Made by a program: the position numbers and the translations under genes. Below the pieces are notes generated by a model. It made no database searches. It had not been told where the DNA came from and was given only the letters and a program-made list of their open reading frames with translations. Positions 1,987 to 23,379 of a stretch of 23,379 nucleotides of DNA are shown piece by piece. Origin of the DNA: a virus (lineage: Duplodnaviria; Heunggongvirae; Uroviricota; Caudoviricetes); the IMG/VR virus record IMGVR_UViG_2802429220_000004; one strand, written 5' to 3'. Positions within the stretch are counted from its first letter, which is position 1, and each line of letters starts with the position of its first letter.

Positions 1987-4900
1987 TCAGCTGATACTGA
2001 TGCCTGCGGTGGCTTTCTTCATCACCACAACCAGCAAATCGCTGATACTTGCTGTGGGATACCAGTTATTCACCAGCCATGCTGACACCGAAAACTCCAG
2101 TGTCATGTGACCGTGACCGGCAGGCATATCAATAACGCCACTGTAAATCAGCGTATTATCCAGCGCGGTACGGTTATAAATTTCAGCACCGTTTTTCCGC
2201 ACTATCAGACGGCATGAGGAGTAAATATCAGTATGCTCTCTCTCATGCTTAGCGCCACTGAATGCCACCGCCGGAATAACAATCTGCCGGTCAAACGGCT
2301 GATCGTCATAAACCCTGACGGTAATGGTCCCTGATGGCCACCGCTCCGGTGCCCGGGAGTCCCGCGGGAAAGCCTTACCCACTGTTTTGACAATATCGCC
2401 TTCAATCTGGTTGGCTGACAGTTTCCCCTTAATCTGACAGTTCTCATTAATCGTGACGTTGTTGAGCGTCCCTGAGTTCGCATTCACACTGCCACTGATA
2501 TCCGCATTTTTAGCGGTCAGCTTTCCGTCCGGTGTCAGGGAAAATGCCGGTGGATTTCCACCACTGGTAATGGTGGGGGCCGTCAGGCGTTTCAGGAACA
2601 CGTCGTTCATGAATATCTGGTTGCCCTGCGCCACAAACATCGGCGTTTCATTCCCGTTTGCCGGGTCAATAAACGCGATACGGTTAGCGGCAACCAGAAA
2701 CTGGCTCAGTTTACCGTCCTCCGTGTCCTCCATGCTGAGGCCAAGCCCGGCAACATAATGCTTACCGTCTTCGGTCTGCTCAATTCTGACGCCCCACATG
2801 GCATTCCATTTATCGTTAGCGTCTTTCCACTCTTTCGAAAACTCATCCAGTCTGCTGGCGTTATCTTCCGTCAGTTCAGCGTTTTCCAGCAGCTCTTTAC
2901 CGAGATGTGTTTTATTAATCAGCCCTTTGTAAAAATTCAGGTAGCCTTCGGCATCATCGCTGGCCCGGCCGACGGCCTCCACAAATGCCGATTTGCCCAC
3001 CAGGTTGACGCTGCGGATATAAAAATAATAATCATGGCCCGGCCTGATATTACTGGCGGCTGTCCAGTACAGCGCCGTGCCAAGATAGCGGGCGGAGGTT
3101 TCAACCTGCCTGATATCCGCAATCTGCTGTTCCGAAAACCAGAATTCAAACTGCACCGTCGGGTCATATACAGCCAGTTTCGGGACCGCCGTTATCTGAA
3201 AATACCCCGGTATCAGTTCAATGGTGGCAGGCGCTGCCGGGGCGTCAATCCGGAACGTGGTGGTGGCAGGTTCGCCCTGCTGGCCATAGCTGTTAATCGC
3301 CCTGACCGTCAGGGTGTATTCCCCGGGCGGCAGACCACTGAAACGGTGCGCCGTGTCTGCGGTGATGGCGGTGGTCACCAGGCGGCTGTTTTCACCGCTT
3401 CCGCTGGTCAGACGCAGACTGAAGCTCACACCTTTCACCACCCGCGGCGTGTCCCATTTCGCCTGCGCCAGATACTGGCCGTCTGAGGCACTCACCTCCA
3501 CCGTGAGGTGCTGCACTGCCGGAGGGATAACGCTGTTCAGGGTGCCTGACTGCGGCTCAAAGCTGGCCCCGTTATCCACGATGGCTTCTTTTTCCGGTAC
3601 GTGCTGCACCGCCGTGATGGCAAAGGTGCCATCCGTGTTTTCCCGGATGGCGACACAACGGAACAGGCGACGACGCAGTGACGGCAGGGAGAGTCCCCAC
3701 ACACCGTATGTCGCCACGCCATCAGGCAGGGTACTGACCTGTATCCGGTCCGGCGCGGGGTGTGCGGTGATGTCCACACTCATCGGCTTACCGCTGCCGT
3801 TAATCAGGTTCACCGTGGCGGTACCGGTCTCCGGCAGTGTCACCTCACGGTCCAGCGTCAGTGTGCGGCTGGCAGCGTCGATGGACAGGATACGTCCGCC
3901 GGTCAGGGTCCCGGCGTAGTCGTTATCACAGATTTCAATGATGTCTCCGGGCGTGTGCCGCAGCCCCTGTGACCCGAGCGTGAAATCCACCGTCTGCGTT
4001 TCCAGCAGTCCGGTCTTTATCACCCACAGTCCGGCACGGTGGGCCTGACCACGACTGGTGCAGCCGAACGCATCCATCTTCAGCAGGTTGCGTCCGTAGC
4101 GCAGTATGGCTTCCGGGTCTTCCACCAGTTCCGTGGAGGTCTGCCAGCCGTTCTGCGGGTCGGTGTAATTCACCTCCACTGCCGTGTGACGGTCCTTCAG
4201 GGCGCTGAAGCTGTAGCGGAACCCCACGCCGTTATCATCCACCACCACATCGCTGTTGGTGTACGGCCACACCACATCCGACGGGCGGTCCTGAACGAAC
4301 GTCAGCGTCTGGCCGTTCCATACCGGCATACAGCGCATCGCCGAGCAGAAATCGCAGAGCACATCCCATGCCTTACGCTGCTGTGACAGGTACGCATTAA
4401 ACGTCATCCGCGGCTCTGTCCCTCCGAAGCCATCCGGGACACGCTGGTCACAGTACTGCCCGATGGCATACAGCGCCCACTTGTCCACATCCGCCGCCCC
4501 CAGACGTTTTCCCATGCCGTAGCGCGGGTGAGTCAGCATGTCCCACAGGCACCAGGCCGGATTGTTGCTGTATGCCGGTTTCAGACTGCCGTCCCAGATA
4601 CCGCTGTAAGTGCGTTTTTCCGGGTCATAGTTTGACGGCACCTGGATGATGCGACCGCGGATATGGTAGTTCACCGTCATCTGCTGGCCACCGAACTGCT
4701 CCGCATCCACCTGCAGCCCCACAATGGCCGTGTTCGGGTAGCACTGTTTCACATCGATGATTTCGGTGTATGACGACCACAGCGTTCTGTTCTGCAGCTG
4801 GTCCGTGGTGCTGTCCGCCGTCTCCCTGACCATCCGGATGTTAAAGGGGCGGGGAGGCAGATTATCCAGAATCACCGACGCCAGAAACTGCGAGGTGGTC

Positions 4901-18835: not shown

Positions 18836-20497
18836 TTATATGAAAAAAACCGCATATTCTTTCTTTTTGGGCTCCGGATTCAGGGACATCAGGGATACCG
18901 CATTGAAAAGCGCCATCAGCGGGTCGATTTTCCCCCGTCCGCTGGCCTGTTTGGTAATAAGGATGGCGTTACCTCTGGGCTCCACCCGGGCATTGCCAAC
19001 GCACCAGGCCATCAGTGGCTGGCCACCATGCACCAGCACCCCTTCAGCCAGTTTGCGTTCGGTGGTTTTGATGGCCCCGCCCAGCTTCCAGCCCTGGCTT
19101 ATCCCCACAACAATTCCGTCGGGGATCCCGGCTTCCGCCAGTGAATCCAGAATCTGCCCCACACCTGACGGGTCAATACCGATATGATCCAGTAACTCAG
19201 CCTCATGAATACGACGCACATACTCCGCCACTTCCGCCGTGTCATCCCCGACCCGACGGACAATCGTCATGTCTCCACAGGCCACAAAATCCTGAAACCG
19301 GGATGCCTCACTCTTCCGTCGGACCACCGCGGTTTCATGCGCCCAGGCATGGCCCCAGCCTAACCATTCGCGGGTCTCCCGATCACGACCAATCACGTAC
19401 ATTCCCAGCAGATCATCCAGGCCCCCGCCGTCAATCCCCACCGTCACCACATCAGCGCGCTGCAGGATATCTTCCAGGCTGACGCGCCTGCCCTGCTGCT
19501 CCCAGAAATCCGCGCCCGCCCAGCGGTCAGAACGCAGGGCAAGGCCAATTTCCACATTGGCGTGTTTTGACATGAAGCCACGAAATGCTTCCTCACCAGC
19601 CTCCCGGGCTTTACGGTACTCCCGGTACAGAAAGGCCTCATCCACCGAATAGCCGAGATTCGGATTGACCATGGCGAGGTTTTCCATCAGCAAGTGAGCC
19701 CCGCTTTCCACCATTTCAGGAGGGTGTTCAAATATCACCGGCAGAAAGTGCGGATCATGAATTTTGCCGTCGCGCACATCCCGGGCGTACTGCAGTTTCT
19801 GTCTGAACACCCCGGCGGGCGGTTCATTCGACTGGGTGGTCGTATACACCACAAACCCTTCCGGGCGGGAGGCAAGGCCGCCTATGGCTTCACGTAACAT
19901 GTCCTCCGCCTTGCACTGCTTGCCAAACAGCCACAACTCATCAATCAGCGTACCCACGGACTTGATACCGGACACCGTATTCGGATCGGCTGCCACCACC
20001 TTCAGGGTGGTGTCTGTCACCCTGTGGGTGATGGTCCGGATATGGGTCTGTACCTGGCAGAGGTCATCCAGATCATCGTCCCGTCGTACCATATCCCTGG
20101 CAGGATTGAAGGCGTTGGCTGCCACCTCCACAGTCGGGGCCAGAATCGTGTAACCCGCCGCCTGCCGCCAGTTCAGTAACAGCGCCGTCATCATGATCCC
20201 GGCGGCCAGTGTGGACTTGCTGTTTTTTTTGGGTATCAGAATGAACACTTCCTTGATATGGCGGACACCGGTCTGCGCATCGTAGGAGCCAAACAGAGCC
20301 GCCACCAGGTCAAACACCCACTGTGCACAGGACTCACCGAACGTCGGGCTGCCCGGTGCATCCACAATCCGCAGTTGTTTAAAAATCGCCAGGGCATGTG
20401 CGGCCTGCTCCGGGTAAATCGGAGACGGAATAATCGACAGCCCCTTTTTCAGGCGCTCTGCCCAGTCCGGGCAGGCCGTGCTCCACACAGGTATCAT
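18836..20497 (-). CDS. terL: Terminase large subunit
   Basis: 553 aa; Walker-A-like …LIPKKNSKST…; acidic nuclease-domain residues; directly downstream of and overlapping the small subunit gene. Confidence 0.9.
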   Translation of the reverse strand: MIPVWSTACPDWAERLKKGLSIIPSPIYPEQAAHALAIFKQLRIVDAPGSPTFGESCAQWVFDLVAALFGSYDAQTGVRHIKEVFILIPKKNSKSTLAAGIMMTALLLNWRQAAGYTILAPTVEVAANAFNPARDMVRRDDDLDDLCQVQTHIRTITHRVTDTTLKVVAADPNTVSGIKSVGTLIDELWLFGKQCKAEDMLREAIGGLASRPEGFVVYTTTQSNEPPAGVFRQKLQYARDVRDGKIHDPHFLPVIFEHPPEMVESGAHLLMENLAMVNPNLGYSVDEAFLYREYRKAREAGEEAFRGFMSKHANVEIGLALRSDRWAGADFWEQQGRRVSLEDILQRADVVTVGIDGGGLDDLLGMYVIGRDRETREWLGWGHAWAHETAVVRRKSEASRFQDFVACGDMTIVRRVGDDTAEVAEYVRRIHEAELLDHIGIDPSGVGQILDSLAEAGIPDGIVVGISQGWKLGGAIKTTERKLAEGVLVHGGQPLMAWCVGNARVEPRGNAILITKQASGRGKIDPLMALFNAVSLMSLNPEPKKKEYAVFFI

Positions 20498-21057
20498 CCG
20501 TTGCCCTCATTATCATTATTCACCACCAGTCGGGGTGGTGGTGGCACCGCAAAACGGTTAGCCGCTTTTTTCGCCGCGTCACCTTTTGCCGATTTTTTAC
20601 CAGCATCGCCTTTTTTATAGTGTGTGAACTGCGCCAGTCGCCAGGCCGCATCCAGTGCCAGTTTCGGGTCAATTATCAGGTTTTCCACCAGGATCCTCCC
20701 CATTGCTTTTACCGGATCTGGAAGACCGTCTTCCATGTAATCAATACTAGGAGATATCACCACGGGCGGTGGCATCTCCGGATTTGTTTCGTCCTGCTGT
20801 GGTATTGCAGCCGCCTCACGGCGACGGGGTTTATCCTCCTGCTCTGATTTTTTCTGCCGGTAAACAGGAACCTCATCCACCTCCACCGTCTCGCCCTGTT
20901 TACGGGCTATAAACGCAAGCACCTCCGGATCTTTTGCCAGCTGCGAGCCTTTAACTCTGGCCGTCTTCGCCGAATAACCTGCCGCAATGGCTGACGCTGT
21001 TTTGTTTTTCCCGGACATGAGCGCCAGCGCAAATTTTCGTTTTTGCGTCGTCAGCAC
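20494..21057 (-). CDS. terS: Terminase small subunit
   Basis: Lys-rich N-terminus (possible helix-turn-helix), Pro/Lys-rich tail; GTG start at 21057 preceded by GGGAGGG (alternative ATG at 21018); 4-nt overlap with terL. Confidence 0.75.
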   Translation of the reverse strand: MLTTQKRKFALALMSGKNKTASAIAAGYSAKTARVKGSQLAKDPEVLAFIARKQGETVEVDEVPVYRQKKSEQEDKPRRREAAAIPQQDETNPEMPPPVVISPSIDYMEDGLPDPVKAMGRILVENLIIDPKLALDAAWRLAQFTHYKKGDAGKKSAKGDAAKKAANRFAVPPPPRLVVNNDNEGNG

Positions 21058-21348: not shown

Positions 21349-21714
21349 TCACAGTCCGATGATATCGTCTGCCCTGCCATGACCTCCGGACACCTCCGGC
21401 AGCGTCGGGTCCGGCATACCACCCGCCGCTTCACGAGCAGACTTTTGTCGATGGCATTCGGTACAGAGCGTCCAGAGATTCGTCTCCTCATTACCACCAC
21501 CGAACTGAAGTGCAATTCGGTGATCGAGTTCACTGTCACAGAGGTCAACCACACGACCACAGAGACAGCACTGTCCGGCATCCCTCAGCCAGATATGACG
21601 CTTGAGGGAAACACGTGCACTGCCACTGACACGACGCTGTTCCCCCTTCAGAATATTCACCCGTCGGGTGTTCAGAGTTTTGATTCTGCTCTGGAGTGTA
21701 CGAAGCTCAGCCAT
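21349..21714 (-). CDS. HNH endonuclease (terminase-associated)
   Basis: …CCLCGRVVDLCDSELDHRIALQFGGGNEETNLWTLCTECHRQK… carries the HNH/zinc-finger signature; position directly upstream of the terminase genes. Confidence 0.85.
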   Translation of the reverse strand: MAELRTLQSRIKTLNTRRVNILKGEQRRVSGSARVSLKRHIWLRDAGQCCLCGRVVDLCDSELDHRIALQFGGGNEETNLWTLCTECHRQKSAREAAGGMPDPTLPEVSGGHGRADDIIGL

Positions 21715-21755
21715 GTAAAATCCCCGTCATATGGCAATCAGTAAAGGAAATAAAT

Positions 21756-21956
21756 ATGTCATCGAAAAACCGGACCCGCAGAACCACAACCCGCAATATC
21801 CGTTTCCCCAATCACATGATTGAACAGATCAACATCGCCCTTGAGCATAAAGGGTCCAGTAACTTTTCAGCGTGGGTTATTGAAGCCTGCAGGAGAAGGC
21901 TGGCAACAGATGCAACGCATCTGCGTACGGCCAGCATGACAAATAACGAGAAATGA
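21756..21956 (+). CDS. Arc-like ribbon-helix-helix DNA-binding protein (66 aa); the only credible plus-strand gene
   Basis: ATG at 21756 with AAGGAAAT SD; NIRFPNHMIEQINIALEHKGSSNFSAWVIEACRR aligns with P22 Arc NLRWPREVLDLVRKVAEENGRSVNSEIYQRVMES; AT-rich relative to flanks; lies in a gap not used by minus-strand genes. Confidence 0.65.
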   Translation: MSSKNRTRRTTTRNIRFPNHMIEQINIALEHKGSSNFSAWVIEACRRRLATDATHLRTASMTNNEK

Positions 21957-22148
21957 ACGTTCGGTTTCTTCCACCATCGTACCGGACAGGCGACTATGAG
22001 GGGACAACGCCGCGCTCCGTTAACGCGGTAAACCCCGGTGTGTATCGTTTTTGATTATCCCCGCACACTCGCGCAGAGGAGTCTCCCTGTCGGGCTGCGG
22101 TCTCTGTTAATGAGGGAATACAGCGACGATACGGCGCATCAGCAAAAC

Positions 22149-22616
22149 TTAGTTCAGGCACTGAGTGCGGATATAGTCCTGTGCCCCTTCCAGTTGCTTC
22201 TGCATCGTCATCAGCCGCTCTCTGAGGGTGAAATAATCCCGTGTAACGGTGTCTGCCAGTTGGGGGCCGGTTGCATTATCCACGCGGGCGGTGCCGGTGG
22301 CTTCACGCACGGTACCGGGACAGTTGGCGTTGATGCGCAGGCGCTTACGACCAGCGGCAACATCAGCGCGCAGAGTTTCATTTTCAGCTCTCGCATCGGC
22401 TAATTCCCTCGAGTATCTGGCATCAAGTGCAGCAACATCACGCTGGCGCTGCTGCATATCAGTAATGGTTGCATTCGCCTGTTCCAGCTCTCTGGCTTTT
22501 TTATCGCGCTGCGCTTTGTAGGTGAGCGCGTTGTCACGGTAATGGTTTGTTGCCAGCCACAGCGCACCACAGCCAACCGCCAGGACAATAATCACCACAC
22601 ACAGAACACGGTTCAT
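22149..22616 (-). CDS. Rz: Rz inner-membrane spanin
   Basis: Close match to lambda Rz (N-terminal TM, …[43 protein letters not shown]…TMQKQLEG…). Confidence 0.9.
22211..22396 (-). CDS. Rz1: Rz1 outer-membrane lipoprotein spanin, embedded in the +1 frame of Rz
   Basis: [20 protein letters not shown]… with lipobox Cys; Pro-rich mature part …[30 protein letters not shown] matches lambda Rz1; GAGGGAA SD. Confidence 0.8.
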
Positions 22617-22623
22617 CTCTCTT

Positions 22624-22758
22624 TCACCCCACCAGTCCCGATAACGTCAGGACTCGCCAGGCGGTGGAAAAGAAAATGGCAACCAGCATGACTAAAAATG
22701 AAATGCCGACAAGTACACAGAGGCTCTTCACCAGCGTTATGAGTTTATCTGATATCAT
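22624..22758 (-). CDS. Unannotated small single-TM membrane protein (44 aa) between the Ant-like gene and Rz
   Basis: ATG at 22758 is 11 nt after the upstream stop with a GGGGTGG SD-like element; its stop is 7 nt before the Rz ATG; product [44 protein letters not shown]; below the ORF-track length cut-off. Confidence 0.4.
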
Positions 22759-22769
22759 TAGCCACCCCA

Positions 22770-23264
22770 TCAATCCGCCTTTGTTATTTTCCCTTTGCCT
22801 GTATCAGCCAGGACAAAATCAATCAGCATATTCGCTTCATTTACCAGCGTACGGATTTTTGATACATGCGCGGCTTTAACCTGTTTCCACTCATTCAGCC
22901 CGGTAGCAAACACACTGGCAATATTTTTATCCCGTTTCATGTCAGCACAAGCCTGGTTGAGTTCTTCCATCACGCTCATTTTACGGGGATTAACGACAAA
23001 ACCCTTCGTCCAGTACTCGTAAAGAACATCGTCGCACTCTTCCTGATACCGGATGACCTTATCGCGGATTTCGGGTTTTACTTTGTTGGGATTAATGGTT
23101 TGTAGCCAGCCGGCAAGTTTTCGAAGTGGCATGGACACCATATTGCGTTGTTTCCCATCCTCAGCAACCATAACGATTTCCGTTATAGTTGACGCAAAAC
23201 GCTGTCTTAACTTAGCCAACTGTGATTGCCAGGCCAGCCCCATCCCCGCAACGACAGGTTTCAT
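22770..23264 (-). CDS. Phage protein, possibly antirepressor-like (Ant/KilAC-like); function uncertain
   Basis: 164-aa ORF immediately upstream of the small ORF and Rz; assignment is from recalled gene order in Stx-type lambdoid phages, not a motif match; weak SD at the 23264 ATG. Confidence 0.5.
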   Translation of the reverse strand: MKPVVAGMGLAWQSQLAKLRQRFASTITEIVMVAEDGKQRNMVSMPLRKLAGWLQTINPNKVKPEIRDKVIRYQEECDDVLYEYWTKGFVVNPRKMSVMEELNQACADMKRDKNIASVFATGLNEWKQVKAAHVSKIRTLVNEANMLIDFVLADTGKGKITKAD

Positions 23265-23379
23265 GGGAACGTATGGTTCGCCATTATGGTTAACTACATA
23301 AAGAGAGTTGCCGTGAAACGTAAGCGACTCGTCAGAACCGTATTGATATTTACTGAGAGCTCAGATCAACTTTCCAGGG

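Follow-up and report, generated by a model that had tools for sequence, protein, structure and literature searches.

Does the short gap between an ant-like gene and the spanin gene Rz of a lambdoid prophage hold a gene of its own and, if so, to which of its neighbours does that gene belong and what might its product do? The question arises from a stretch of 23,379 nucleotides (IMG/VR virus record IMGVR_UViG_2802429220_000004, Caudoviricetes; hereafter the window), which carries the late region of such a prophage on its minus strand in the order insertion-sequence end, truncated ant-like gene (ant'), small ORF, Rz/Rz1, HNH, terminase and morphogenesis genes. A preliminary description of the window, made from the sequence alone, had drawn attention to a 44-aa ORF filling a 153-bp spacer, with a plausible SD and a short charged N-terminus followed by one hydrophobic helix, and had suggested a part in lysis control or an addiction-type function.

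The structural elements of that description proved accurate. The ORF lies on the minus strand at 22624–22758, where it runs for 44 codons from an ATG (22758–22756) to a TGA stop (22626–22624) and occupies 135 bp of the 153-bp gap between the ant stop (22772–22770) and the Rz ATG (22616). Complete ATG-to-stop ORFs of at least 44 codons occurred in 1.1% of shuffles of this spacer (n = 20,000). An SD-like GGGGTGG (minus strand, 22762–22768) stands ahead of the ATG, with a pairing energy to the anti-SD of −6.5 kcal/mol. The Kyte–Doolittle 19-residue maximum, 2.82, falls on residues 13–31, and these codons (minus strand, 22666–22722) make up the predicted transmembrane core, where the C, V, V, G, I and F positions do not vary in alignment A1. 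AlphaFold2, supplied with the family alignment, returned a single continuous helix over residues 2–43 of the 48-aa form (mean pLDDT 87, rising to 90–95 in the core).

The charges around this helix are distributed unevenly. The N-terminal flank carries an aspartate and two lysines, both lysines being conserved, while the C-terminal flank of 12–14 residues has 0–1 charged residues, so that two conserved positive charges ahead of the helix face 0–1 behind it. From this asymmetry we infer an N-in/C-out topology, in which a short cytoplasmic N-terminus, M(I)SDKLITL.K, would lead into the strongly hydrophobic helix and a mostly uncharged periplasmic tail of 10–13 residues. The predicted helix and the comparative data presented below agree in pointing to a real gene for a small single-pass membrane protein. 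Lipoprotein identity was ruled out: measured against the lipobox pattern [LVI][ASTVI][GAS]C after a signal peptide, the ORF has no lipobox, its sole cysteine being preceded by K-S-L, K-I-L or K-T-I, with L or I rather than G, A or S at position −1.

The reading frame is open beyond the ATG at 22758, reaching a further ATG at 22770 (48 aa) and a TTG at 22773 (49 aa), and the upstream ATG (22770–22768) overlaps the ant stop as TGATG. In the window, both ATGs have SD-like elements of near-equal strength (−7.1 and −6.5 kcal/mol). Relatives without ant, however, start precisely at the equivalent of window position 22758, as MSDK..., each with its own SD (AAGGGAGGA, at −11.3 kcal/mol, TAAGAGGTA, GGGGCAGGG and TTAAGGAGT); four unrelated upstream contexts each place an SD ahead of this same ATG, at −5.8 to −11.3 kcal/mol in contexts other than that of the window. 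In nine loci of the ant class, moreover, an in-frame TAG or TGA separates the upstream ATG from the conserved one. Because ant-less relatives begin at this codon with SDs of their own, and because of the stops in the nine ant-class loci, the conserved start is probably the ATG at 22758. The 48-aa RefSeq model (WP_000539792.1) would then be four codons too long, its N-terminal extension MGWL (minus strand, 22759–22770) probably not belonging to the conserved start, and the 49-aa TTG model XECs191 probably begins too far upstream as well. The longer form from the ATG at 22770 could nonetheless be used in the window itself. A dual-start M1/M5 motif of the kind found in holin/antiholin pairs was considered and rejected, as the additional codons bring in no charged residue and the nine loci break them with stops.

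Contrary to the preliminary description, the ORF is not unannotated: the gene itself is already known, catalogued as a hypothetical protein or one without assigned function. E. coli chromosomes that are 100% identical to the window over 22100–23320 carry it in RefSeq as the 48-aa CDS WP_000539792.1 (‘hypothetical protein’), and in phage BP-4795 the same gene is ORF50, while the older, original VT2-Sakai record has no annotation of it. The profile of PHROG 4906 (unknown function) was matched over its full length (E 5.4e-30, residues 1–48 on positions 2–49 of 49), and divergent relatives matched at E 2e-23 and 1.6e-19. PHROG 4906, WP_000539792.1, BP-4795 ORF50 and XECs191 are thus one protein, with listed starts 4–5 codons upstream. 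Searches of Pfam, NCBIfam and PADLOC gave no match (PADLOC: 0 families at E up to 1), nor did a sequence profile search of the PDB.

XECs191, whose sequence equals that of the ORF apart from the TTG-start residue, is among the 465 intergenic ORFs with RIBOseq signal listed by Hücker et al. (2017, PMC5597208) for E. coli O157:H7 Sakai. In the data given there for LB, it has a transcriptome RPKM of 30.0, a translatome RPKM of 12.6, an RCV of 0.43 and a coverage of 0.55. The product was predicted in that study to be located in the inner membrane, with 1 TMH, and the classifier used there called the ORF ‘real’ (PMC5597208). This RIBOseq signal is weak and comes from uninduced cells, at a locus that is multi-copy in Sakai, and its low level is consistent with spontaneous induction. 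A literature search by accession, phage ORF name and topic found no functional study of the protein, and the ORF is not mentioned in a Stx-phage genomics paper (PMC8136144) or in a spanin survey (PMC6139136). What is new here is the corrected start, the incidental nature of ant as a neighbour, and the invariable coupling of the ORF with a spanin gene in lysis cassettes that otherwise differ.

The family is confined in range and common within it. A word-indexed search returned only E. coli and Stx-phage proteins (69–100% identity), and a profile search of 1.84 billion representative proteins gave 27 matches, all of them members of the ORF family or mis-called extensions. Neither distant relatives nor a parent protein appeared among those 1.84 billion, and since all 27 matches belong to its own family, the ORF does not represent a piece of some longer protein. 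It occurs in 1749 of 5426 complete E. coli genomes (about a third), at up to 11 places per genome, and in 276 phage records, compared with 299 records that carry Rz at ≥80% identity. A scan of GTDB species representatives, run with a narrow pattern whose reach does not extend to the divergent subfamily, gave one match, in a 328-bp contig labelled ‘Xanthomonas pisi’ (NZ_JPLE01000251.1, locus L084). At the protein level, the ORF on this contig is 93% identical to its counterpart in E. coli phages, and the match most likely reflects assembly contamination.

Comparison of 257 related loci, drawn from viral contigs, phage records and genomes, indicates that the ORF is maintained by selection. The ORF is intact at 43–44 codons in 256 of them, even though nucleotide divergence reaches about 25–30%. 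Its length varies only through gain or loss of one whole codon, at codon 2, and one locus has a read-through extension. Given at least 104 substitution events, and with 4.1% of single changes creating a stop, the probability of encountering no stop is ~0.012. Across 40 distinct DNA haplotypes, mean pairwise divergence was 0.39 at synonymous and 0.14 at non-synonymous sites. Nei–Gojobori dN/dS between the three main subfamilies was 0.25–0.39, against 0.78 and 1.11 when the alignment was read in either alternative frame. On a common set of loci, the ORF had a value of 0.36 versus 0.50 for a 52-codon stretch of Rz, a neighbouring gene established by experiment. The N-terminal half is near-invariant between subfamilies that are ~60% identical, while conservation of the last codons (GLVG) may reflect an embedded ribosome-binding site and not the peptide. 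We regard the ORF as almost certainly a genuine protein-coding gene.

Our comparison also shows which neighbours are constant. At every locus with enough flank, the ORF follows the endolysin and lies immediately before the spanin gene, and this placement does not change with the kind of holin (two types), endolysin (three types) or spanin (several types). The holin is an S21-type pinholin or the combination of Phage_holin_8 and holin_3_7; the endolysin is a SAR lysozyme, a phrog_315 endolysin or a phrog_465 M15-like endolysin; and downstream stand Rz/Rz1 (in two N-terminal classes and a mosaic form) or a phrog_7528 lipoprotein. In the window and most Stx phages the order is S21-type pinholin, SAR endolysin, ant, ORF, Rz/Rz1. 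Loci of the E. coli ED1a type have the same holin and endolysin, followed by a terminator-like hairpin, a 60-aa orfA (phrog_1115), the ORF and Rz/Rz1; a variant of this order places a 156-aa ORF and a further membrane ORF of ~31 aa ahead of the ORF. Elsewhere the order is ant, ORF, a 28-aa ‘...IRWW’ membrane ORF, a Dam-like methyltransferase and Rz. In phiP27-like loci, finally, Phage_holin_8 and holin_3_7 are followed by a phrog_315 or phrog_465 endolysin, orfA, the ORF and a 60-aa phrog_7528 lipoprotein; here Rz is missing and the ORF belongs to a divergent subfamily, MSDSIIKLARILCVVVGLSFS..., about 60% identical to the others.

These arrangements uphold one part of the position given in the preliminary description and overturn another: the ORF does lie inside a lysis cassette, with an endolysin upstream and a spanin gene downstream, but ‘wedged between Ant and Rz’ does not describe it, ant being interchangeable. 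We consider ant an incidental neighbour because ED1a-type loci, of which there are about 80, all without ant, have the 60-aa membrane ORF in its stead. Judged by gene order, the ORF is a fixed component of the far end of the lysis cassette in one large group of E. coli phages, and its supposed link to the antirepressor gene ant is accidental. The possibility that it is what is left of the absent C-terminal portion of a complete Ant was rejected for related reasons, as it is present in loci without ant and forms a family in its own right.

Several other genes occupy the interval between endolysin and Rz in these relatives. Among them, small ORFs with a single helix and no assigned function make up at least two further families: orfA (phrog_1115) and 28–33-aa ORFs of the IRWW type. 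Such orfA- and IRWW-type ORFs lie at 3895–4076 in locus L086, 2398–2499 in L182 and about 3900–3998 in L181, and downstream of the ORF in L140 and L156. Those ending in IRWW fall in phrog_4493, phrog_3246 and phrog_6632. In Stx2c phages that lack the ORF, an unrelated 33-aa membrane ORF of this IRWW type (phrog_6632) abuts Rz instead. By eye, the N-terminus of the ORF weakly resembles the 28-aa ‘...IRWW’ ORFs (7 of 28 identities), in sequences whose transmembrane composition makes scores unreliable. In L169–L171 the small membrane ORFs are separated from Rz by an inserted gene for a 255-aa Dam-like DNA methyltransferase (e.g. 4271–5038 in L171), a further cargo gene inside the lysis cassette.

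Recombination has also shaped this region. Breakpoints of recombinant loci fall within the ORF and within Rz, and the N-terminus of Rz stays linked to the 3' half of the ORF. A mosaic Rz was seen in 18 locus entries (some representing the same contig twice; e.g. L060, L068 and L164–L167), in which the N-terminal transmembrane part is that of the window Rz and is joined, right after the membrane anchor, to a P22/HK97-like periplasmic part with a different embedded Rz1. The adjacency of ORF and spanin gene could be simple linkage within a mosaic module. Phages whose Rz is less than ~70% identical (lambda, P22 and HK97 types among them) have endolysin R directly against Rz, with no such ORF, so that spanins in general can work without it. 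That the ORF accompanies several kinds of holin, endolysin and spanin speaks against a tight interaction with any one specific partner.

The junction between the ORF and the spanin gene is close in every class. In the window, the ORF stop lies 7 nt before the ATG of Rz (minus strand, 22149–22616; 155 aa; Pfam PF03245, E 1.3e-46; phrog_13, E 6e-74), an i-spanin gene in which the 61-aa o-spanin gene Rz1 is embedded in the +1 frame (minus strand, 22211–22396; it has a lipobox and is annotated in relatives as Rz1 lipoprotein precursor). The SD-like element for Rz, GGTGGGGTG (minus strand, 22625–22633; −6.4 kcal/mol, spacing 8), lies inside the last codons and stop of the ORF. In the second N-terminal class of Rz, the ORF stop overlaps the GTG start of Rz as GTGA, and in phiP27-like loci the lipoprotein ATG follows ~4 nt past the ORF stop. 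Since the ribosome-binding site of the spanin gene lies in the last codons of the ORF, the two are probably translated in a coupled manner.

The window itself may not retain a working cassette. Its last 59 bases (23321–23379) form the terminus of an insertion sequence of the IS66 family (ISCro1-like), with 97–99% identity to the ends of loci that bear the annotation IS66-like ISCro1 family transposase. The adjoining ant-like gene (minus strand, 22770–23320; P22_AR_N and ORF11CD3 domains) is 5'-truncated, being cut at about codon 6, and homology to the intact 189-aa gene of relatives ends at 23320. With the insertion sequence in the ant-like gene, the holin and endolysin genes are separated from ant'-ORF-Rz in this prophage, and the lysis cassette may be defective. 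On the other side of Rz, there is a plus-strand ORF (21696–21956) whose product is listed, for identical DNA, as a YlcI/YnfO family protein, and a gene for an HNH endonuclease (minus strand, 21349–21714) lies beside the genes for the small and large terminase subunits, which is the layout of phages with HNH-assisted cos packaging.

We consider it somewhat more probable than all other explanations together that the ORF is a genuine late-operon gene whose product assists lysis from the inner membrane, at the spanin step or close to it. This product would be a late-expressed accessory lysis factor. Small lysis peptides outside the holin–endolysin–spanin scheme are exemplified by the phiKT gp28 ‘disruptin’ and the Mu gp25 ‘releasin’, and disruptin is cationic and amphipathic. 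The ORF has no homology to either, and its peptide is, in contrast, a classical hydrophobic TMD. Such peptides are nonetheless a precedent for essential lysis roles of short lysis-cassette ORFs that had earlier escaped annotation (see also PMC9239132).

Among the alternatives, a lysis-timing modulator of the antiholin or holin kind, a role that the preliminary description had also named, whose helix would act on the holin or pinholin or on membrane energisation independently of the spanins, seems unlikely. It draws on the fact that the ORF encodes a small single-pass membrane protein in a lysis cassette. Small membrane proteins of lysis cassettes also include holins, antiholins and accessory proteins such as lambda S105/S107, S21 68/71, T4 RI, P1 LydB/LydC/LydD and P2 LysA; some proteins of this kind cross the membrane once and have a purely modulating role, and accessory one-TMD holin-like regulators have been described in other phages, mycobacteriophage LysF1b being one example. 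The ORF, however, has no sequence similarity to these proteins and no match to any holin family in Pfam, NCBIfam or PHROG. Holin architecture combines a TMD with a highly charged hydrophilic C-terminal domain, whereas the ORF has one TMD and a C-terminal flank without such a tail; on both sequence and architecture, its product is not a holin. The gene also lies downstream of the endolysin and not beside the holin, the two-start arrangement considered above resembles holin/antiholin pairs in neither charge nor conservation, and the occurrence of the ORF with at least two unrelated holin systems (S21-type; Phage_holin_8 with holin_3_7) makes a specific holin partner unlikely.

We see a small chance of a more specific function: that the ORF product is a dedicated inner-membrane partner of spanin systems or, in phiP27-like prophages and together with orfA and phrog_7528, part of a minimal non-canonical outer-membrane-disruption module. 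As a partner, it might serve in regulation or assembly and be co-translated with the i-spanin. In the phiP27-like prophages (L183–L224, e.g. 2801–3323 in L194; 2170–2683 in the phiP27 locus, L259) the cassette ends with orfA, the ORF and the lipoprotein, without Rz. Judged by its position, the ORF sits there in the slot expected for an i-spanin. For phiP27, Kongari et al. (2018, PMC6139136) named the 60-aa phrog_7528 lipoprotein as the o-spanin and a 64-aa TTG-start ORF (20348–20542) as the i-spanin, with the shortest periplasmic span of all systems. We found the latter ORF to be antisense to a 90-aa phiP27 ORF and missing from relatives.

Like Rz-type i-spanins (lambda Rz; PF03245), the ORF product has an N-terminal transmembrane helix, for which a like N-in/C-out orientation is predicted, and a gene in the distal lysis cassette; this gene is directly upstream of either Rz/Rz1 or the phrog_7528 lipoprotein, and thus adjacent to an o-spanin lipoprotein gene, and in phiP27-like loci its place directly ahead of a putative o-spanin lipoprotein is the i-spanin slot of a ‘separated’ architecture. 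Its periplasmic part, however, measures 10–13 residues, compared with roughly 100 residues with coiled coils in Rz-type i-spanins, it has no similarity to PF03245, and in the window it is followed by a complete Rz/Rz1 pair. The shortest i-/o-spanin pair given in the survey totals 62 residues, and most are far longer (Kongari et al. 2018, PMC6139136). Identity as an Rz-type i-spanin was therefore rejected, a periplasmic tail of this length being too short to bridge the periplasm. We retain the broader idea of a spanin partner because the ORF always lies at the spanin gene, whatever the holin and endolysin, and because of the i-spanin slot in phiP27-like loci.

The tight junction with the spanin gene would also be expected if the ORF were only a coupling leader, translated to bring ribosomes to the spanin start past a long untranslated or moron-filled gap, with a functionless peptide. 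In every class its stop lies 7 nt before the downstream start or overlaps it, with the SD in the last codons, and the Stx2c phages, in which a different small ORF abuts Rz, fit this scheme likewise. Yet a pure leader needs no conserved transmembrane helix, and the peptide is under purifying selection (dN/dS ~0.3), with an N-terminal half that has barely changed between the divergent subfamilies. We therefore consider it rather improbable that coupling is the only role of the ORF.

We give similarly little weight to a moron membrane protein expressed from the prophage, whether a small toxin or addiction element, a superinfection-exclusion protein or another lysogenic-conversion factor. Type I toxins are found among small hydrophobic peptides of this size. 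The ORF product shares with such toxins (Hok, Ldr, TisB, Ibs, ShoB) its length and a single very hydrophobic helix; some ribosome footprints were recorded in uninduced lysogens; and the R-to-Rz interval is an insertion hotspot, having received ant, the Dam-like methylase and other small ORFs. The expression signals point elsewhere. No sigma-70-like promoter was found on the coding strand in the three loci scanned (window, ED1a-type and phiP27-like), and a consensus scan of 21900–23379, which a non-canonical promoter might escape, gave no promoter-like site on either strand. The ORF and its surroundings matched no Rfam family (E up to 1), and neither an antisense RNA nor an antisense promoter was seen. 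In ED1a-type loci, a strong terminator-like hairpin (14-bp stem and T-run; L086, 3828–3860) separates the SAR endolysin gene from orfA, so that the genes beyond it, including Rz, would, on established lambda biology, need Q-antiterminated late transcription. The ORF is presumably expressed from such a late transcript, and the low footprint level fits spontaneous induction. Unlike type I toxin genes, the ORF is co-directional with a late operon and, wherever enough flank is available, never stands outside a lysis cassette. The toxin or addiction function offered in the preliminary description thus finds no promoter, Rfam RNA, PADLOC match or stand-alone copy to back it.

That the ORF is no gene at all, having arisen by chance within a conserved non-coding spacer, might be argued from its shortness, its restriction to E. 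coli/Shigella phages and its want of a Pfam or NCBIfam model, but this is very improbable, being largely refuted by the comparative data on conservation, selection and start sites.

Our preferred explanation of the ORF remains an accessory function, exerted in the inner membrane around the spanin step. Most Shiga-toxin phages have the gene within the cassette that sets the time of lysis, and with it the release of toxin and phage, in an R-to-Rz interval that holds several families of unstudied small membrane ORFs. If its product modulates the spanin or holin step, it would be a new component of the best-studied lysis pathway and would offer a handle on Stx release.
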